IMG/VR virus record: IMGVR_UViG_2563366923_000006 | Reading direction: 5' to 3' (one strand) | Source: a virus | Lineage: Duplodnaviria > Heunggongvirae > Uroviricota > Caudoviricetes | Length of the DNA stretch: 39,953 nucleotides | Part shown: positions 4,400-38,451 of the stretch, piece after piece | Numbering within the stretch: the stretch's first letter is position 1 | How the letters are laid out: every line of letters begins with the position of its first letter | Translations under genes and position numbers: made by a program | Notes under the pieces: generated by a model | What the model saw: the letters and a program-made list of their open reading frames with translations, nothing else | Told to the model about the DNA's origin: nothing | Database searches by the model: none

Positions 4400-5092
4400 T
4401 TAATTATGTCTCTTAAGGGTTTGCGACTGACTGATTAAGACCTTTCCAAAGACCATGAATCGGTGTTCGTTTTCGCTAGTAATTCCCCATTCACGGTAAA
4501 TCTGGTTATCAGAAATCACCAGCAGTTTGTCAGGAATCATTTGAAGTCTTTTAACGTATATTTTGTCATCAAAACCAAAGACATATATACCATCACCATC
4601 AAACTGATTGATGCTGACATCAACGAAGATGAGATCTCCTGGCTCAATGGTTGGACACATACTGTCCCCACGAACGTTGATAACTTTGATGTGATTGGCT
4701 GGTCGTCCGCCGAACATTGATACAGCATTATCAGTTCTGTATTCGATGGCATGAATCACATCAATGACATCACCGCCCTGGATAAGGCCATTTCCCGCAC
4801 TGGCACTGATATCCAACATTTCAATACGGAACACATCCTTCACCTGCGCAACATCCTCATCATTACTGTTTTTATATACAGTATTACTTTTGAGGGCAGA
4901 GGTAAAGAGATCAGCAATATCAACACCTAAGCTCTTGGCAATATTACTCAGTGTTTGTTCGGTAAATTGTTTCTGCTTACCCGTTTCTAAGCGCGAGATG
5001 TTCGCCGCATCTACTCCTATTGCTTCAGCGAGATCGGCGATTTTCATGTTCTTCGCTTGGCGAAGTTGTCTGACTCGTTTTCCTATGTTCAT
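4400..5092 (-). CDS. cI: CI-like phage repressor (XRE HTH + S24 LexA-like peptidase domain)
   Basis: N-terminal HTH; C-terminal S24-type domain; divergent from a Cro-like gene. Confidence 0.85.
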   Translation of the reverse strand: MNIGKRVRQLRQAKNMKIADLAEAIGVDAANISRLETGKQKQFTEQTLSNIAKSLGVDIADLFTSALKSNTVYKNSNDEDVAQVKDVFRIEMLDISASAGNGLIQGGDVIDVIHAIEYRTDNAVSMFGGRPANHIKVINVRGDSMCPTIEPGDLIFVDVSINQFDGDGIYVFGFDDKIYVKRLQMIPDKLLVISDNQIYREWGITSENEHRFMVFGKVLISQSQTLKRHN

Positions 5093-5189
5093 GCGTTTAT
5101 TACATTTCTTTATTGCGTGATAAGCAAATCAACTTGCGCAAAATACTTGCGTGAAATAACATGCATAACGCGCAATATTTGGAGGATAT
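5093..5189. promoter_or_regulatory. OR-like operator/promoter region between repressor and cro-like genes
   Basis: Repeated TTGCG(T/C) and CGCAA half-sites at 5113-5127, 5134-5141, 5148-5155, 5168-5175. Confidence 0.55.
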
Positions 5190-5450
5190 ATGCAATCACC
5201 ATTACGAAATGTGCGTAAGGCGCATGGTTTCACTTTGCAGCATGTTGCTGCGGGTGTTCAAGTCAATCCAGCGACGTTGAGTCGTATTGAGAGGCTGGAG
5301 CAGATTCCATCTATCGAGCTTGCAGAACGTTTAGCCAATTTTTTTAAGGGTGAAATCAGCGAAATGCAGATTCTTTATCCGGCACGTTTTCAATCTAGCC
5401 AAAACCAGAATGGGTTTAAACCACAGGAACAGGAGGTGAACCGTGGGTAA
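5190..5450 (+). CDS. Cro-like HTH regulator
   Basis: 86 aa XRE-type HTH; divergent from repressor; GGAGG SD. Confidence 0.7.
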   Translation: MQSPLRNVRKAHGFTLQHVAAGVQVNPATLSRIERLEQIPSIELAERLANFFKGEISEMQILYPARFQSSQNQNGFKPQEQEVNRG

Positions 5451-6349: not shown

Positions 6350-7280
6350 ATTAACCGGCTATGTATGGGATGGTTGCGCAGCGTCAGGCATGAAATTATC
6401 CAGCGTGGCAATTATGGCCCGCCTGGCTGATTTCAGTAATGACGAAGGTGTGTGCTGGCCATCAATTGAAACCATTGCCCGCCAGATTGGCGCGGGGATG
6501 AGTACCGTCAGAACGGCTATCGCACGGCTGGAAGCAGAAGGCTGGTTAACGCGTAAGGCGCGTCGCCAGGGTAACCGCAATGCGTCGAATGTTTATCAGC
6601 TTAACGTTGCGAAGCTTCAGGCAGCGGCATTTTCTCAACTGTCAGATTCTGACCCGTCAAAATCTGACGCATCAAAATCTGACCCGTCAAAATTTGATGC
6701 GTCGAAATCTGGCAAAAAAGCGGGTTTTCACCCGTCAGAATCTGGCGGGGATCCGTCAGTAAAATCAAAACATGATCCGTCAGATAAAAAACCTTCTCGT
6801 CCGGACGCTTCGCAACCGGACACGCAGACGGATGAACAGGATTTTTTAACTCGCCATCCTGATGCGGTTGTATTCAGCCCTAAAAAGCGCCAGTGGGGAA
6901 CGCAGGATGATTTGACCTGCGCACAGTGGCTCTGGAAAAAAATCATCGCCCTGTACGAGCAGGCTGCCGAATGTGACGGCGAGGTGGTTCGTCCCAAAGA
7001 ACCGAACTGGACAGCCTGGGCAAACGAAATTCGCCTGATGTGTGTGCAGGATGGTCGTACTCACAAACAAATCTGCGAGATGTACAGCCGCGTCAGCCGC
7101 GATCCGTTCTGGTGCCGTAACGTGCTCAGCCCGTCGAAGCTGCGGGAAAAATGGGATGAGCTTTCCCTGCGCTTATCGCCGTCCGTCAGCACATACACAG
7201 AAAAACGTGAAGATCCGTACTTCAAATCCAGTTACGACAACGTGGACTACAGCCAGATCCCGGCAGGATTCAGGGGGTGA
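6339..7280 (+). CDS. Replication initiator, O-like (N-terminal winged-helix HTH, DnaT-like C-terminal region)
   Basis: Position after cII; N-terminal HTH pattern; contains internal iteron-like repeats. Confidence 0.7.
   Translation: MSTKLTGYVWDGCAASGMKLSSVAIMARLADFSNDEGVCWPSIETIARQIGAGMSTVRTAIARLEAEGWLTRKARRQGNRNASNVYQLNVAKLQAAAFSQLSDSDPSKSDASKSDPSKFDASKSGKKAGFHPSESGGDPSVKSKHDPSDKKPSRPDASQPDTQTDEQDFLTRHPDAVVFSPKKRQWGTQDDLTCAQWLWKKIIALYEQAAECDGEVVRPKEPNWTAWANEIRLMCVQDGRTHKQICEMYSRVSRDPFWCRNVLSPSKLREKWDELSLRLSPSVSTYTEKREDPYFKSSYDNVDYSQIPAGFRG
6645..6790. repeat. Iteron-like direct repeats (C(C/G)RTCRAAATCTG units, ~7 copies) inside the O-like gene; putative origin
   Basis: Copies at about 6653, 6669, 6683, 6699, 6730, 6754, 6776; followed by an A-rich stretch. 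Confidence 0.55.
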
Positions 7281-7771
7281 TCATGAGTCTTTTGAATGAA
7301 GTTCAGAAATTCATTAAAGCCCATCCGGGGTGTACTTCCGGAGACATTGCGGATGCTTTTGCAGGTTACTCACGGCAGCGCGTTCTGCAGTCAGCAAGCA
7401 AGTTACGTCAGAGTGGGCGTGTGGCTCACCGTTGTGAAGGAGATACACGCAGACATTTCTCGCGCCTGACTGAGAGAGCGCAGGAGCCGGAACCACAACC
7501 AGTTCGTGAAACCAGACCTGTGCGCAAGTTCTATGTCGGCACTAACGACCCCCGGGTGATTTTGTGCCTGACCCGCCAGGCTGAAGAACTGGAGTCCAGG
7601 GGCTTATACCGTCGTGCTGCAACGGTGTGGATGGCGGCATTCCGTGAAAGCCATTCCCAGCCAGAACGAAACAATTTTCTGGCGCGTCGTGAGCAGTGTT
7701 TACGGAAAAGCAGCAAGCGCGCTGTATCGAGTGATGAGTGGTATCTGTCAGGGAATTACGTGGGGGCGTAA
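7277..7771 (+). CDS. Hypothetical phage protein, possibly regulatory
   Basis: 164-aa ORF translationally coupled to neighbours. Confidence 0.5.
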   Translation: MIMSLLNEVQKFIKAHPGCTSGDIADAFAGYSRQRVLQSASKLRQSGRVAHRCEGDTRRHFSRLTERAQEPEPQPVRETRPVRKFYVGTNDPRVILCLTRQAEELESRGLYRRAATVWMAAFRESHSQPERNNFLARREQCLRKSSKRAVSSDEWYLSGNYVGA

Positions 7772-8097
7772 TGACGACGTTAACTCAATGCCAGCAGCAG
7801 GTGCTGGATATGCTGATTTCTTACCAGAAAGAACGTGGCTTCCCGCCAACCAATCAGGAGGTGGCAACCATGCTGGGATACCGTTCGGTGAATGCAGCGG
7901 TGGAGCATCTTCGAGCACTGGAGAAAAAAGGCGTCATCACGATAAAGCGTGGCGTGGCCCGGGGGATAACGCTTCATACCGCGATGAAGGACGACGACAG
8001 CGAGGCGGTCGGGATTATCCGCGCACTGCTTGCCGGTGAGGAAAACAGCAGGCTGCGTGCAGCCCACTGGTTACATGAGAGGGGCCTGAAAGTATGA
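7771..8097 (+). CDS. LexA N-terminal DNA-binding-domain-like protein without peptidase domain
   Basis: MTTLTQCQQQVLDMLISYQKERGFPPTNQEVATMLGYRSVNAAVEHLRALEKKGVI resembles the LexA winged-helix domain; TAATG coupling. Confidence 0.6.
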   Translation: MTTLTQCQQQVLDMLISYQKERGFPPTNQEVATMLGYRSVNAAVEHLRALEKKGVITIKRGVARGITLHTAMKDDDSEAVGIIRALLAGEENSRLRAAHWLHERGLKV

Positions 8098-8483
8098 AGC
8101 TGATTCTGCCTTTTCCGCCCAGTGTGAACACGTACTGGCGACACCCCAACAAAGGGGCATTTGCTGGTAAGAGCCTGATAAGCGAGGCGGGGCGAAAATT
8201 TCAGAGCGCGGCGTGTGCCGCCATCATTGAGCAGTTACGTCGTCTGCCGAAACCAACGTCGGCACCTGCTTCAGTGGAGATCGTGTTGTTTCCTCCGGAT
8301 AACCGGATCCGCGATCTGGACAACTATAACAAGGCGCTGTTTGACGCCCTGACCCACGCGGGTGTGTGGGAAGACGACAGTCAGGTGAAAAGAATGCTGG
8401 TTGAGTGGGGACCGGTTATCCCGGGAGGGAAGGTCGAGATCACTATCAGTAAGTACGAGAAAACGGCGGGTGCAGCCGCCTGA
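8094..8483 (+). CDS. rusA: RusA Holliday-junction resolvase
   Basis: LPFPPSVNTYWRH ... RDLDNYNKALFDALT motifs typical of RusA. Confidence 0.85.
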   Translation: MKLILPFPPSVNTYWRHPNKGAFAGKSLISEAGRKFQSAACAAIIEQLRRLPKPTSAPASVEIVLFPPDNRIRDLDNYNKALFDALTHAGVWEDDSQVKRMLVEWGPVIPGGKVEITISKYEKTAGAAA

Positions 8484-8502
8484 TCAAGAGGAGAAACGAA
8501 GT

Positions 8503-9312
8503 ATGAATAATCTGATGGTCATTGATGGTATTGAAGTTCGTCGTGATGCTTATGGGCGTTACAGCCTGAACGATCTGCATCGCGCAGCAGTAGCATCTGG
8601 TGCAAATGCCAGAACCAAGGAGCCAGGAAAGTTTCTTTCCAGCCAACAAACTGTTGAGCTTGTTCATGAATTAACCAACACCCAGAATTTGGGTGTTGAC
8701 CCGGTGAGTGTGATTCATGGGGGAAATGAACGGGGAACGTATGTCTGTAAGGAACTGGTGTATGCCTATGCAATGTGGATCAGCCCGTCATTCCATCTGA
8801 AGGTGATCCGTACTTTCGATATGGTAACCAGCGCACCGGAAAAATTATCCGGACAGGCTGCTGACAAGATGCAGGCTGGCGTGATTCTGCTGGACTTTAT
8901 GCGCCGGGAGTTAAATCTGTCTAACTCATCTGTGCTTGGGGCCTGTCAGAAACTCCAGGAGGCTGTTGGCTTACCGAATCTGGCACCGCGCTATGCCATT
9001 GATGCACCTGCTGACGCGCCTGATGGCTCAAGCCGCCCGACGCTGTCGCTGAGTGCACTGCTGAAGCAGTATGGTATCCGCCTGACGGCTAATCAGGCAT
9101 ATCACCAGATGGTGAAGCTGGGGATCGTCGAGCAGCGCGAACGATACAGCCGTACCGGGATTAACAACATCAAAAAATTCTGGTCGCTGACGGCGAAAGG
9201 CTGCATGTTCGGCAAGAACATCACCAGTCCCGCAAATCCGCGTGAGACGCAGCCGCATTTCTTCGAATCCCGATTCCCTGAGCTGTTAAAGCTGCTCGAT
9301 ACCGTTCATTGA
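8503..9312 (+). CDS. KilA-N domain protein (antirepressor-like)
   Basis: N-terminal KilA-N-like pattern; AAGAGGAG SD; internal ATG chosen over the longer tracked ORF. Confidence 0.65.
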   Translation: MNNLMVIDGIEVRRDAYGRYSLNDLHRAAVASGANARTKEPGKFLSSQQTVELVHELTNTQNLGVDPVSVIHGGNERGTYVCKELVYAYAMWISPSFHLKVIRTFDMVTSAPEKLSGQAADKMQAGVILLDFMRRELNLSNSSVLGACQKLQEAVGLPNLAPRYAIDAPADAPDGSSRPTLSLSALLKQYGIRLTANQAYHQMVKLGIVEQRERYSRTGINNIKKFWSLTAKGCMFGKNITSPANPRETQPHFFESRFPELLKLLDTVH

Positions 9313-9313
9313 G

Positions 9314-10309
9314 GTGACCGTGAGAGCACTACTGACCCCTGAAATAGCCCCGCGTATGGGGATTGTATTGTTCAGACCAGGTTCAGAGCTGATGCCCCTG
9401 TTTATGCAGGGGCGTGTCCTGCTGGAGCCTGAGCCGGAACGTTATTCATCTTTCGCCAGTGGTGCCGTTCCGGCGGCATCACAACCGCTGGCGGATGATC
9501 CTGCCGTTAGGGCCGTGTTCCGCAATGAGGCAGTGATCCGTCGTGCTGGTGGCGTGGAATGTCTTGAAAGCTGGTTACTTCGTGAAAAAGGCTGCCAGTG
9601 GCCTCATTCCGACTGGCACAGCGAGAACATGACCACAATGCGACACGCGCCGGGCGCGATCCGTCTGTGCTGGCACTGCGATAACCAGCTGCGCGATCAG
9701 TTCACGGAACGGCTGGAATCAATGGCAACGGATAACTGTGCCCGCTGGGTGTTGTCTGTAGTCCGTCGGGATCTCGGTTTTGATGATAACCATGCCGTGA
9801 CAATGCCGGAACTGTGCTGGTGGTTGATTCGTAATGACCTGGCGGATGCCTTACCGGAAAGTGCAGCCCGTAAGGCACTGAGATTACCGAAGCCTGTTGT
9901 GCCGTCTGTCACCCGGGAAAGTGACCTTGTGCCTTCGGTTCCTGCCACCAGCATCATCCAGGATAAGGCGAAAAAGGTGCTGGCGCTGAAAGTGGATCCG
10001 GAGTCGCCGGAGTCTTTTATGTTACGCCCAAAACGCCGCCGCTGGGTTAATGAAAAGTACACGCGCTGGGTTAAGACACAGCCGTGTGCATGTTGTGGAA
10101 AGCCTGCTGATGATCCCCACCACCTGATAGGCCACGGTCAGGGTGGAATGGGTACAAAAGCGCATGACCTCTTTGTGTTGCCTTTGTGCAGAAAGCATCA
10201 CGACGAGCTGCATGCGGATACCGTGGCATTTGAAGAGAAGTATGGCTCTCAGCTGGAGCTGATATTTCGTTTTATCGATCGTGCGCTGGCAATTGGCGTA
10301 TTGGCGTAA
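9314..10309 (+). CDS. DUF968-like phage protein with C-terminal HNH-like Cys/His motifs
   Basis: CACCGK...HHLIGHG...LCRKHHDELH at C-terminus; GTG start. Confidence 0.65.
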   Translation: MTVRALLTPEIAPRMGIVLFRPGSELMPLFMQGRVLLEPEPERYSSFASGAVPAASQPLADDPAVRAVFRNEAVIRRAGGVECLESWLLREKGCQWPHSDWHSENMTTMRHAPGAIRLCWHCDNQLRDQFTERLESMATDNCARWVLSVVRRDLGFDDNHAVTMPELCWWLIRNDLADALPESAARKALRLPKPVVPSVTRESDLVPSVPATSIIQDKAKKVLALKVDPESPESFMLRPKRRRWVNEKYTRWVKTQPCACCGKPADDPHHLIGHGQGGMGTKAHDLFVLPLCRKHHDELHADTVAFEEKYGSQLELIFRFIDRALAIGVLA

Positions 10310-10322
10310 GTGGAGAACGAGC

Positions 10323-11075
10323 ATGAACCTTGAAGCCTTACCAAAATATTACTCCCCAAAATCTCCAAAATTGAGCGATGACGCACCGGCGACAGGCTCA
10401 GGTGGTTTAACGATTACGGATGTGATGGCTGCGCAGGGGATGGTGCAGTCGAAAGCACCGCTTGGGTTTGCCTTATTCCTGGCAAAAGTTGGTGTTCAGG
10501 ATCCTCAATTTGCGATTGAAGGTCTGCTCAATTACGCGATGGCACTGGATAACCCGACATTGAACAAATTGAGTGAAGAAACCCGGTTACAGATCATCCC
10601 TTACCTTGTGAATTTTGCCTTTGCTGATTATTCCAGGTCTGCGGCAAGTAAGGCTCGCTGTGAGCATTGTGCTGGTACTGGATTTCATAATGTATTGCGC
10701 GAAGTGGTGAAACACTCCAGAAGCGGGGAATCTGTTATCAAGGAAGAGTGGGTGAAGGAACTATGTCAGCATTGTCATGGTAAGGGAGAAGTCAGCACAG
10801 CGTGCAGAGGGTGTAAGGGTAAAGGTATTGTCCTGGATGAAAAAAGGACCCGGCTTCATGGCACGCCTGTTTATAAGATTTGTGGGCGTTGCAATGGAAA
10901 CCGGTTTAGCCGTTTACCAACCACACTGGCGCGGCATCATGTCCAGAAGCTGGTACCAGACCTGACGGATTATCAGTGGTACAAAGGATATGCAGATGTC
11001 ATTGATAAACTGGTTACAAAGTGCTGGCAGGAAGAAGCATATGCAGAGATACAATTGAGAAAGGTGACAAGATAA
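10323..11075 (+). CDS. Putative late-gene antiterminator (Q-like) with four CxxCxGxG zinc-finger repeats
   Basis: Position just upstream of the late promoter; CEHCAGTG, CQHCHGKG, CRGCKGKG, CGRCNGNR repeats. Confidence 0.55.
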   Translation: MNLEALPKYYSPKSPKLSDDAPATGSGGLTITDVMAAQGMVQSKAPLGFALFLAKVGVQDPQFAIEGLLNYAMALDNPTLNKLSEETRLQIIPYLVNFAFADYSRSAASKARCEHCAGTGFHNVLREVVKHSRSGESVIKEEWVKELCQHCHGKGEVSTACRGCKGKGIVLDEKRTRLHGTPVYKICGRCNGNRFSRLPTTLARHHVQKLVPDLTDYQWYKGYADVIDKLVTKCWQEEAYAEIQLRKVTR

Positions 11076-11106
11076 ATGGTTTTCGCCGAAGATGACGACA
11101 TGATGC

Positions 11107-11135
11107 TTGCATTTTTCAAAAAATATGGATAAGAT
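11107..11135 (+). promoter_or_regulatory. Late promoter candidate (TTGCAT-N17-TAAGAT)
   Basis: Near-consensus -35/-10 with 17-bp spacer immediately after the Q-like gene. Confidence 0.5.
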
Positions 11136-11182
11136 TTTCCCAACGATGGGCTTTGTATGTCTACCGTTGATAAGATTTAGGA

Positions 11183-11206
11183 ACCCGCCACTGAGCGGGT
11201 TTTTTG
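11183..11206 (+). terminator. Rho-independent terminator downstream of late promoter (tR'-like)
   Basis: ACCCGC-CACTGA-GCGGGT hairpin followed by TTTTTT. Confidence 0.65.
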
Positions 11207-11327
11207 TACCTGTAAACTTGGTGCAGTACAGTAAACACGCTGGTGGTCGTGAATACTGACTTTTTATCTTGCTGGATTTTTAGACAAGAGTTATTGGTAT
11301 GTCATGTTAACCAGAAGGGAAAAAGAC

Positions 11328-11531
11328 ATGCTAAAACAGCAAGATATGACAGAAACCGCCGCCGCAGTCCTTCATTTCTTACCTGCTGACAAGTGGGTAA
11401 CGCCACGCATGATGACGAGAACTACCGGAGTAAGCGAAGCCCGGTGCCAGTTAATACTGACTCAGTTAGTTCTGGCGGGTCTGGCGAAGGATAACGGCGG
11501 GTACGGGAATAAATTCAGACGCTGCCAGTAA
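11328..11531 (+). CDS. Hypothetical small protein
   Basis: AAGGGA upstream of internal ATG; 67 aa. Confidence 0.4.
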   Translation: MLKQQDMTETAAAVLHFLPADKWVTPRMMTRTTGVSEARCQLILTQLVLAGLAKDNGGYGNKFRRCQ

Positions 11532-11681
11532 TGGCGGTTTCCTGCTGTGAAAATGGGCGGCTGGTGGGTGTTGGTAGCACCTGCCAGCCATTCGCTCATG
11601 CTTACTGGTCACAAGCGAACCACGGCCCACTGCTTTAGCGCAAAAGCAGAGTGAGCCTACCAGAGTTACGCTTACTGATCC

Positions 11682-12734
11682 ATGAAAAATACTGTAAAAA
11701 TAAACAGTGTTGATTTAATCAACGCTGATTGCCTGCATTTTATTCAGTCCCTGCCTGATGATTCCATTGACCTGATTGTTACCGATCCGCCTTACTTCAA
11801 GGTGAAACCTAACGGTTGGGACAATCAGTGGAAAGGGGACGAAGATTACCTTAAGTGGCTGGACCACTGTCTGGCCCAGTTCTGGCGGGTGTTGAAACCT
11901 GCCGGAAGCCTTTACCTGTTCTGTGGGCATCGCCTGGCATCTGATATTGAGATCATGATGCGTGAACGTTTCAACGTGCTTAACCATATCATCTGGGCGA
12001 AGCCGTCCGGACGTTGGAATGGGTGTAATAAAGAAAGTCTGCGCGCATATTTTCCTGCCACAGAGCGCGTTCTGTTTGCTGAACATTACCAGGGGCCATA
12101 TCGCGGCAAAAGTGACGGCTATGCGGCAAAAGAAAGGGAACTCAAACAGCACATAATGGCACCGCTGATATCGTATTTCAGGGATGCTCGTGCCGAACTG
12201 GGTATAACGGCAAAACAAATTGCCGAAGCCACAGGTAAGAAAAATATGGTTTCCCACTGGTTTGGTGCCAGTCAGTGGCAGTTGCCGAATGAGGCTGACT
12301 ATCGGAAGTTACAGGCACTGTTTTCCCGTATAGCGGCAGAGAAGTTTCAGGAACAACAACTGGAACAACCACACCACCAGCTGGTGGCATCTTATGATTC
12401 ACTGAATCGCAAATATTCTGAATTGCTGGATGAGTTTAAATCTCTCCGGCGCTATTTCTCCGTATCAGTTTCCGTGCCTTATACCGATGTCTGGACGCAT
12501 AAGCCCGTTCAGTTCTATCCGGGTAAACATCCGTGCGAGAAACCGGCGGATATGCTCCGGCAAATAATCAATGCCAGTAGTCGACCTGGTGATCTGGTTG
12601 CTGATTTCTTTATGGGATCCGGTTCCACAATAAAAGCAGCAATGGCGCTGGGGCGTCGGGCGTTAGGTGTTGAACTTGAGTCAGAGCGGTTTAATCAGAC
12701 GGTGAAAGAGGTAAGTGAACTGGTGGGGAAATAA
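11682..12734 (+). CDS. Orphan DNA N6-adenine/N4-cytosine methyltransferase (DPPY motif)
   Basis: IVTDPPY motif and later FxGxG; no adjacent restriction gene. Confidence 0.8.
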   Translation: MKNTVKINSVDLINADCLHFIQSLPDDSIDLIVTDPPYFKVKPNGWDNQWKGDEDYLKWLDHCLAQFWRVLKPAGSLYLFCGHRLASDIEIMMRERFNVLNHIIWAKPSGRWNGCNKESLRAYFPATERVLFAEHYQGPYRGKSDGYAAKERELKQHIMAPLISYFRDARAELGITAKQIAEATGKKNMVSHWFGASQWQLPNEADYRKLQALFSRIAAEKFQEQQLEQPHHQLVASYDSLNRKYSELLDEFKSLRRYFSVSVSVPYTDVWTHKPVQFYPGKHPCEKPADMLRQIINASSRPGDLVADFFMGSGSTIKAAMALGRRALGVELESERFNQTVKEVSELVGK

Positions 12735-37043: not shown

Positions 37044-37292
37044 TTAGTGAACAAACCACTCGTCAGCAGATTCCCAGGTATCTTTCAGAGTCTCCTGAAC
37101 AAAAGTTTTTGCAGAATCCTTATCTGCGGTGCGTGTAACAGAAAGGCCATCATTGCTGGTGGCTTTTACTAACACCTCAACATCGTCATAACGCTTACTG
37201 ATGCGTCGGGTTAATTCTTCCTTTAACGCATCCACAGCACCGGTTGGCATTTTAGTCATTTTTTCTTTGGCTATGCAGATTTCAATACGCAT
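37044..37292 (-). CDS. dinI: DinI-like DNA-damage-inducible protein
   Basis: MRIEICIAK ... [11 protein letters not shown] matches the DinI family pattern; GGAGGG SD. Confidence 0.8.
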
Positions 37293-37307
37293 AAAAGTCC
37301 CTCCATA

Positions 37308-37323
37308 CTGTGTTTGTATACAG
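37308..37323. promoter_or_regulatory. LexA box (CTGTGTTTGTATACAG)
   Basis: CTGT-N8-ACAG match directly upstream of the dinI-like SD. Confidence 0.7.
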
Positions 37324-37335
37324 CATTATTTTTAA

Positions 37336-37351
37336 CTGTATGGATAAACAG
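37336..37351. promoter_or_regulatory. LexA box (CTGTATGGATAAACAG)
   Basis: Second CTGT-N8-ACAG match 12 bp from the first. Confidence 0.65.
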
Positions 37352-37353
37352 TG

Positions 37354-38451
37354 TCAAGAGGTCTTATTTCTGCTCCTTTGGAGCTCTTCAAAACGATTAT
37401 GTAAAGATTTCGGATACAGTTCGGTATATACCTGCCATAGCACGTTTAATGAACGATGCCCTGTAACTTGGGCGACTTCCTCAATACTAAAACCAGCCTC
37501 AAATAAGCGACTTGCCCCTTCTCTACGCAAATCATGGTATCGCAGATCCTTAATACCTAATTTGCTTCTTACTCTCTGAAATCCCGCAGTAACAGAAGTG
37601 CTGTTATATGGAAAAATGAATTCCGATTTTTGGGGCTGTCGTTGGACGATATCCCAGGCTTCCCCAAGCAAGGCTACTTTCATGTGGTTACCTTCCTTTT
37701 TGCGTGGATCTTTCCTGTCTCTTACGAGTATAGATTTTTGTTCCTGGTCGAGATCTTCCCATCGTAACCGGCATACTTCTCCGATTCGCATACAGGACCA
37801 TACAGAAAATTTGAGGATATCAACGAACGGAATTTTTGAGCATTTATGAGTAGATCGTTGTTGAAGGCCTGCAATGAGCATGTCCAGTTCATCAGATGCT
37901 GGTCTACGATTACGACGGTTTGATTTACCAATCAAACCAAGTTTAAGTAGATATGGGCGAGCGCTTTTCGCCGGGTTTGATGTGTAATTAATTCCGTATA
38001 CAGGTTTGGCCGCATCCAGAACACTGCCAAGATAACTAACATCGTGGCTGACTGTTGCAGGACCTGCACCAGCGTTGTTTCTTAGCCTGCAATGTTCAAT
38101 TACGTCATTTTCTGTCAGTTCAGATAGTTTGATCGCGGAGATGTCACTATCCATAAGCAGTTCCAGCACATATCTTTTAGTACGGCCTGCTTTACCTCCG
38201 GCATTTGGGTCATTTAAATATTTGTGTAGTAAGTCACGGACTGTAAGTCCGTCAACTGCATTTGATGATGGAATGCCATATAGATCTAATTCCATCACTT
38301 TCTGTGTGCCCCATGTTTTGGCATGAGCATGTTTAGGGAATGTTTTGCTTTCCCTGTAAGTGATAACACCTTTTTCTTTGATAATCACATTACAGCGATA
38401 GCGTGGTGTGCCATCGGATTTTAGTCGTTTCTCTATGTTATAGTACGCCAT
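37354..38451 (-). CDS. int: Tyrosine integrase (dusA-associated type)
   Basis: 365 aa with C-terminal catalytic motifs (HDLRR ... VTGH ... Y); abuts dusA. Confidence 0.9.
   Translation of the reverse strand: MAYYNIEKRLKSDGTPRYRCNVIIKEKGVITYRESKTFPKHAHAKTWGTQKVMELDLYGIPSSNAVDGLTVRDLLHKYLNDPNAGGKAGRTKRYVLELLMDSDISAIKLSELTENDVIEHCRLRNNAGAGPATVSHDVSYLGSVLDAAKPVYGINYTSNPAKSARPYLLKLGLIGKSNRRNRRPASDELDMLIAGLQQRSTHKCSKIPFVDILKFSVWSCMRIGEVCRLRWEDLDQEQKSILVRDRKDPRKKEGNHMKVALLGEAWDIVQRQPQKSEFIFPYNSTSVTAGFQRVRSKLGIKDLRYHDLRREGASRLFEAGFSIEEVAQVTGHRSLNVLWQVYTELYPKSLHNRFEELQRSRNKTS

Follow-up and report, generated by a model that had tools for sequence, protein, structure and literature searches.

Does a phage protein that carries a LexA-type DNA-binding domain without the autocleavage domain still act at LexA boxes? 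The question is raised by a 108-aa gene product in a 39,953-nucleotide stretch of viral DNA (IMG/VR record IMGVR_UViG_2563366923_000006), which was analyzed at its full length and is called the window here. The window represents a temperate phage of the SfV-like type that combines lambdoid early genes with a Mu-like contractile tail, and 79% of its first 25 kb matches phage vB_EcoM-720R4 at 98% identity. A sequence-only reading of this DNA had suggested that the protein resembles the N-terminal winged helix of LexA, that it could not be inactivated by RecA-stimulated cleavage, and that it might occupy LexA boxes, including two upstream of a dinI-like gene, or phage operators. The features considered are compiled in Table 1.

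Table 1. Positions in the window of the LexA-like gene, its domains, neighboring genes, and candidate target sites
Feature	Position	Strand	Details
LexA-DBD-only gene	7771..8097	+	108 aa, ATG to TGA, stop codon 8095-8097; ORF list, PF01726, PHROG 362
LexA-type winged helix-turn-helix, aa 1-69	7771..7977	+	Helices 6-22, 28-35, and 40-52; strands 56-58 and 66-68; AF2
Recognition helix, aa 39-52	7885..7926	+	SVNAAVEHLRALEK; LexA, SPNAAEEHLKALAR
Flexible linker, aa 70-74	7978..7992	+	pLDDT <50 at 72-74; length varies in family alignment
Predicted helical hairpin, aa 75-108	7993..8094	+	Helices 75-88 and 93-103; AF2 pLDDT 88-91
PerC-like/YfdN-like regulator	7277..7771	+	164 aa; Pfam PerC E = 7e-10; PHROG 1324
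RusA Holliday-junction resolvase	8094..8483	+	Pfam RusA E = 4e-15
DinI-family gene	37292..37044	-	82 aa; Pfam DinI E = 1e-19; directly after integrase stop codon
Two SOS boxes, candidate targets	37306-37325; 37334-37353	-	TACTGTGTTTGTATACAGCA; AACTGTATGGATAAACAGTG; perfect CTGT-N8-ACAG
Near-consensus SOS box, candidate target	4864..4883		TACTGTTTTTATATACAGTA; inside cI-like ORF 4400..5092, minus strand
SOS box, candidate target	11690..11709		TACTGTAAAAATAAACAGTG; over codons 3-9 of N6/N4 DNA methyltransferase gene

A LexA-type winged helix without the protease domain

An in-frame GTG at 7738 offers an alternative start 11 aa farther upstream, while the ATG at 7771 coincides with the N terminus in every homologue and in LexA (MTTLT versus MKALT). 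Profile searches assigned the 108-aa protein to the family named in the sequence-only reading: the full Pfam LexA_DNA_bind model (PF01726; cutoff, 23.7 bits) was matched from position 1 to 65 of 65 with 69 bits (E = 2.9e-19), and the other winged-helix Pfam matches, Crp and Rrf2 only, were both below their cutoffs. The NCBIfam lexA model (TIGR00498) was matched over positions 1 to 91 of 203 with 70.2 bits, below the equivalog cutoff of 110.95 bits. With phmmer against the PDB, residues 2 to 90 were aligned with residues 2 to 86 of Escherichia coli LexA (E ~1e-15), and PHROG 362 covered residues 1 to 108, tail included, against positions 1 to 106 of its 106-position model (E = 4.3e-59). PADLOC returned only subthreshold winged-helix matches (CARF and Csa3) and therefore no link to a defense system.

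An AF2 model built on a 19-sequence family alignment reached a pLDDT of 84.7 (single-sequence AF2 was poor, with a pLDDT of 52), and values were about 90 in the winged-helix part (aa 1 to 69). Foldseek placed this model on the LexA-DNA complex 3jso with an rmsd of 1.0 Å over 68 residues at 50% identity, and alignment with residues 1 to 69 of E. coli LexA gave 51% identity. The protein thus has the fold of the LexA N-terminal domain (residues 1 to 84; PDB 1lea and 3jso) and shares with it S39, N41, A42, E45, K53, R64, and G65. Unlike LexA, it has a more basic wing (K59 and R60) and an added C-terminal helical hairpin, and its gene belongs to an early operon of a phage instead of being an autoregulated host gene. 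No Peptidase_S24 domain was found with Pfam in the ORF or downstream of it, where rusA is the next ORF, and the Ser119-Lys156 dyad is absent from the chain, which ends at residue 108. These results confirm a LexA-type winged helix without the S24 peptidase/dimerization domain. Because the peptidase domain and the Ser/Lys dyad are missing, RecA-stimulated self-cleavage is not possible, just as the initial reading had held.

Reviews of the crystal structure, the secondary sources from which the contact residues were taken, list S39, N41, A42, and E45 as the base contacts of LexA with its operator and R28 as a backbone contact (PMC11442139; bioRxiv 10.1101/2020.07.14.201889); an older model adds E44 (PMC3091678). 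In the alignment with the LexA DNA-binding domain, the window protein keeps all four base-contacting residues, whose conservation had been proposed as a check, and it carries V for P40, V for E44, and N for R28. We compared these positions in 16 family representatives (39 to 95% identical to the window protein) and in 12 similarly distant proteins with true-LexA-like N-terminal domains (36 to 58%). S39 is present in 16/16 and 12/12 proteins, respectively, N41 in 15/16 and 12/12, A42 in 11/16 and 11/12, and E45 in 11/16 and 6/12, whereas R28 (0/16 versus 12/12) and E44 (0/16 versus 11/12) are lost throughout the family. E45 is changed to G, L, I, T, or D in five of the 16 lineages, and A42 is also changed in five; the P0131, P0138, and P0150 lineages, only 39 to 43% identical to the window protein, retain all four base contacts in the helix SPNAAAEH. 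Throughout the family, R64, G65, and I66 of the wing do not vary, nor do K53 and Q8. The family is thus LexA-like in its core contacts, and the loss of R28 and E44 is a consistent signature that could alter affinity or specificity.

The length and hydrophobic pattern of the tail are conserved even in lineages that are only 39 to 51% identical, with A97 and L101 invariant in the family alignment. HMMER aligned the first tail helix with the hinge and cleavage-site segment of LexA (residues 78 to 86), placing A88-G89 on A84-G85; this dipeptide lies within a predicted helix and is swapped in relatives (LLANEE, LLVGEE, LLTRKE, and others). The only match of the tail in the PDB was insignificant (HOIL-1L LTM hairpin; E = 1). 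Based on the predicted structure, we propose that the hairpin at aa 75 to 108 is a dimerization or partner-binding module. The LexA DNA-binding domain alone does not repress sulA-lacZ, and it does so when fused to any dimerizing module (Dmitrova system; PMC7160566); by analogy, a natural DNA-binding domain with a conserved hairpin would fit this dimerizer-fusion logic. Such engineered fusions (Dmitrova 1998, as in PMC7160566) repress SOS-box promoters, are not RecA cleavable, and likewise combine a LexA DNA-binding domain with a dimerization module, which is predicted in the window protein. However, they are artificial and contain authentic LexA residues 1 to 87, while the window domain is only ~50% identical to LexA and the dimerizing role of its hairpin is putative.

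Other proteins and copies show different arrangements. P0133, P0156, P0161, and P0163 (140 to 165 aa) contain two tandem LexA DNA-binding domains and are single-chain pseudodimers, a different solution to the missing dimerization domain. A separate subfamily of 157 to 158 aa (P0351, P0319, and similar proteins), abundant in Klebsiella and Raoultella, joins a LexA DNA-binding domain to an unrelated C-terminal region and is misnamed “SOS-response repressor and protease LexA.” One Shigella flexneri copy (CP182557; L012 211-533) is frameshifted after about residue 80 and has lost the hairpin, an example of decay in a prophage. At the 3' end of the window gene, positions 8043 to 8072 form an imperfect inverted repeat that on the minus strand resembles a terminator hairpin followed by TTTTCC; this may be only a coding coincidence.

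Operon, distribution, and relatives

The LexA-like gene is translationally coupled to both neighbors: its ATG shares a nucleotide with the TAA stop codon of the PerC-like gene (TAATG), and its TGA stop codon overlaps the start of rusA (ATGA). No sigma-70-like promoter or plus-strand terminator-like site was called between the cro promoter region and the LexA-like gene, which is therefore part of the early-right operon. The gene order is cro (5190), cII/YmfL-like (5443), a 112-aa ORF, an O-like replication protein gene (6339), the PerC-like gene, and the LexA-like gene, followed by the genes for RusA, a KilA-N protein, DUF968/HNH, and Q (10281). Relatives of the PerC/YfdN-like protein include the Pch/PerC activators of the LEE virulence island.

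The gene is present in 2,233 of 5,426 complete E. coli genomes (41%), in up to four copies each, and in 61 phage records, including SfII, SfIV, SfV (orf42), mEp460, mEp390, cdtI, and Stx2a- and Stx2c-converting phages. It is labeled “LexA family transcriptional regulator” or “LexA DNA binding domain protein,” and the window protein is 95 to 97% identical to RefSeq clusters of the former name with thousands of members. A locus scan of IMG/VR yielded only copies that are 97 to 99% identical, and a scan of genome contigs yielded mostly genuine LexA genes from Halomonas and similar taxa. All 48 distinct IMG/VR alleles encode 108 aa, and with a dN/dS of ~0.19 the gene is under purifying selection. 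Phage-encoded LexA DNA-binding domains without a protease are already known and widespread (PMC6182141), and this family is already annotated; literature searches returned no functional study of the lambdoid LexA-DBD-only family. New are the R28/E44 signature, the conservation of the hairpin, the close synteny with rusA and methylase genes, and the placement in Gifsy-type SOS operons.

This synteny was examined in 14 lineages spanning 39 to 95% identity. In 12 of them, rusA lies directly 3' of the gene, the two either overlapping by 4 nt or being separated by one small ORF, and two lineages carry the gene without RusA; in a Proteus phage, the LexA-like protein is encoded directly before NinG. 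A DNA methyltransferase gene abuts the gene upstream in 6 of the 14 lineages, and in L011 one is found farther upstream, with an intergenic SOS-box promoter in between. Most relatives have a dam methylase gene between the PerC-like and LexA-like genes, which the window and SfIV lack.

In a Klebsiella/Enterobacter sublineage (L007, L011, L176, and L178, and also Klebsiella phage MK416021, L173), the gene resides in a Gifsy-type cassette consisting of a terminator, an SOS-box promoter, a DinI or RecA_C-only gene in some cases, phrog_1813, the LexA-DBD gene, phrog_1212, RusA in some cases, DUF968, and Q. A canonical SOS box overlaps the promoter upstream of the LexA-DBD operon in L007, L011, L176, and L178, and the gene is therefore SOS induced there. 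LexA control of the dinI-antirepressor-irsA operon has been proven experimentally in Gifsy prophages (PMC3121763). The Gifsy operon and the relatives have the same TTGAAY-N17-TATACTGT...ACAG promoter/SOS box, the Gifsy-2 promoter being nearly identical to that of L178, and the relatives carry the LexA-DBD gene in the irsA slot, followed by the phrog_1212 gene, a resolvase gene, DUF968, and Q. The window copy is unlike this type: it is transcribed from pR and lacks an SOS-box promoter of its own, the closest box on its upstream side being 2.9 kb away, in cI. In the Klebsiella/Enterobacter relatives, a product that binds SOS boxes would create a negative feedback loop. However, the recognition helix has diverged in three of the four Gifsy-type loci (SQNTVFIH, SSNAVLLH, and SPYAAYEH) while the upstream SOS box is still canonical, which argues that at least these three lineages would not read the SOS box as LexA does.

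Two assignments were rejected in the course of this comparison. The family is not IrsA, because Gifsy-2 STM1020 is a DUF1367/NinB-like protein with an hhalign probability of 0.4% against the family. Nor could phrog_1813 be identified as a GftA-like antirepressor, since the two have no BLASTP similarity and only a positional analogy, the antirepressor slot. In L176, a 95-aa ORF (4909-5262) behind a canonical SOS box encodes only a RecA C-terminal domain (PF21096, E = 9e-10) in the slot of DinI in sister phages and could be a RecA-directed modulator. The immunity regions covered (L007/L008 and L176) are Rac/DicA-like, both with an HTH-plus-YdaT pair; L007/L008 also encodes a 128-aa HTH-only repressor without an S24 domain.

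SOS boxes in the window and in related loci

The window contains four perfect CTGT-N8-ACAG sites against 0.56 expected, and 8 is the only enriched CTGT/ACAG spacing. Across 16 diverse loci, CTGT-N8-ACAG also ranks first in enrichment among the 4-N8-4 palindromes lying no more than 6 kb from the gene (13 observed versus 2.5 expected). This expected count was derived from k-mer frequencies, a mononucleotide shuffle being misleading given the CAGC/GCTG codon bias. A survey of CTGT/ACAG spacings, of all 4-N8-4 palindromes, and of inverted repeats in 7000-11700 revealed no alternative operator beyond the SOS boxes.

The two LexA boxes upstream of the dinI-like gene proved to be real; both overlap or bracket a strong TTGACA-18-AAAAAT promoter of this gene on the minus strand. 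The dinI-like gene (37044-37357 region) has the appearance of an SOS-induced moron at the phage's att-proximal end. The box at 4864-4883 falls where the S24-type repressor gene encodes the linker. Three divergent cI alleles (window, L002, and L013) conserve this box in their DNA, although the linker protein varies among them and only T-V-x-x-N-S, corresponding to CTGT...ACAG, is kept. This pattern suggests that the cI box is under DNA-level selection; no promoter was called adjoining it. The box at 11690 is also present in SfV orf48 (L001 34172) and in the distant locus L011 (8741). The N6/N4 methyltransferase gene over which it lies is located between Q and the lysis genes, the slot of stx in Stx phages.

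Among 53 close relatives with the gene, the module 7200-10300 is common to about 50, while the box of the cI region is found in 14 and that of the Q/methylase region in 13. The phage-borne boxes are therefore not coinherited with the gene, and a protein that targets SOS boxes would have its constant partner in the host regulon. Binding to phage immunity operators, which the sequence-only reading had also entertained, is unlikely, as the cI/cro intergenic region (5093-5189) has no CTGT-type sites.

Possible functions of the truncated LexA

We tentatively favor the view, possible though short of probable, that the protein is a hairpin-dimerized, RecA-insensitive LexA surrogate that is made early in lytic development and reoccupies SOS-type sites. 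Its synthesis from the early-right (pR) transcript would restrict it to prophage induction or phage infection. The hairpin would replace the LexA C-terminal domain as the dimerizer and set two winged helices on the CTGT-type inverted half-sites of SOS boxes, and the uncleavable product could then close SOS-box promoters again when host LexA has been destroyed. Candidate targets would be SOS genes of the host, the dinI-like gene of the phage itself, and, in rival prophages, antirepressors under LexA control. The net effect in lytic development would be that the SOS response is reset or shut off with a delay.

Binding to SOS boxes is favored because S39, N41, A42, and E45 are kept, because CTGT-N8-ACAG is the sole enriched spacing with no other operator-like palindrome in sight, and because the Klebsiella/Enterobacter relatives sit behind a Gifsy-type SOS-box promoter next to a DinI or RecA_C-only protein. 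The idea also has an engineered precedent in the repression of sulA-lacZ by LexA-DBD fusions (PMC7160566). Nevertheless, occupancy of LexA boxes is something that we infer against real counterevidence. The case is weakened because all 16 lineages lack R28 and E44, so that DNA reading may differ; because contact residues are altered in several lineages beside canonical boxes; because the LexA dimerization domain is absent and the DNA-binding domain alone does not repress sulA (PMC7160566); because inheritance of the gene is not linked to that of the phage-borne boxes; and because gp6 of GIL01, the only characterized truncated phage LexA, binds another palindrome and activates (PMC6182141). The broadest form of the idea, that a RecA-proof LexA surrogate, carried in ~40% of E. 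coli genomes by prophages that include Stx2a and Stx2c phages, acts as a novel-hairpin dimer to turn the SOS regulon off again once host LexA has been cleaved, seems to us rather doubtful. It would likely silence antirepressors under LexA control, colicins, and further functions that competing elements express upon SOS induction.

Instead of reading SOS boxes, the protein might be a phage-specific transcription factor with its LexA fold retuned to a private non-SOS operator, in the phage or in the host, where it would repress or activate; we regard this as unlikely, although it has a precedent. GIL01 gp6, from a Bacillus thuringiensis tectivirus, is likewise a phage-encoded LexA DNA-binding domain without a cleavage domain, and it resembles the window protein in architecture and timing: gp6 is made from early transcripts after SOS induction, and the window gene is also expressed early by its operon position. 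This truncated homologue binds GaCACAnnTGTGaC, its own palindrome over the -35 element of the late promoter, and activates that promoter (PMC6182141). The loss of R28 and E44 across the family, together with lineage-specific changes at positions 42 and 45, suggests altered or evolving specificity, and stand-alone LexA DNA-binding domains are common in unrelated phages. In contrast to the gp6 system, however, no such site was found in the window, and late transcription in these phages is controlled by the Q antiterminator. Neither the coinherited module 7200-10300 nor the surroundings of the gene in the 16 loci yielded a repeated or conserved palindrome other than the LexA type, and the E. coli clade retains all four LexA base-contacting residues. 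The two proteins also differ in their tails, a short extension in gp6 as opposed to a 34-aa hairpin, and in host clade and phage type.

The conserved neighborhood might instead reflect a function as a DNA-binding accessory of the RusA/NinG resolvase or of a DNA methyltransferase rather than as a transcription factor. The hairpin would then serve as the contact to the enzyme, which the winged helix would hold or regulate on DNA. RusA is a dimer and so could itself supply dimerization, and the adjacency of the gene to rusA (or NinG) and to methyltransferase genes in many lineages agrees with such a partnership; however, RusA works alone in E. coli K-12. The lambdoid nin gene order is positionally conserved in any case, which weakens the evidence from synteny, the same slot in Gifsy-2 holds an unrelated DUF1367/NinB-like gene, two lineages lack RusA, and the window and SfIV lack the upstream methylase. 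Even with λ NinH as a precedent for a small DNA-binding protein of the nin region (PMC7166090), we consider an accessory role improbable.

That the gene is a decaying, functionless remnant of a full-length LexA/cI-type repressor, as the alignment of the first tail helix with the LexA hinge and cleavage site, Ala-Gly dipeptide included, and the frameshifted Shigella copy might suggest, is effectively refuted by the selection data on the 48 intact alleles, by conservation of length and tail down to 39% identity, and by the abundance of the gene in complete E. coli genomes, and we give it almost no credence.

Should the favored reading, binding to SOS boxes, be true, many E. coli, Shigella, and Shiga toxin-producing E. 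coli lysogens would contain an uncleavable LexA mimic that is switched on as LexA is destroyed. Models of the SOS response, of Stx-phage induction, and of competition between coresident prophages would then change, and antibiotic-induced mutagenesis and toxin release could be affected. If the protein has its own target or a RusA/Dam partner instead, it would be one more uncharacterized nin-region factor. Either way, the gene is abundant, conserved, and easily testable.
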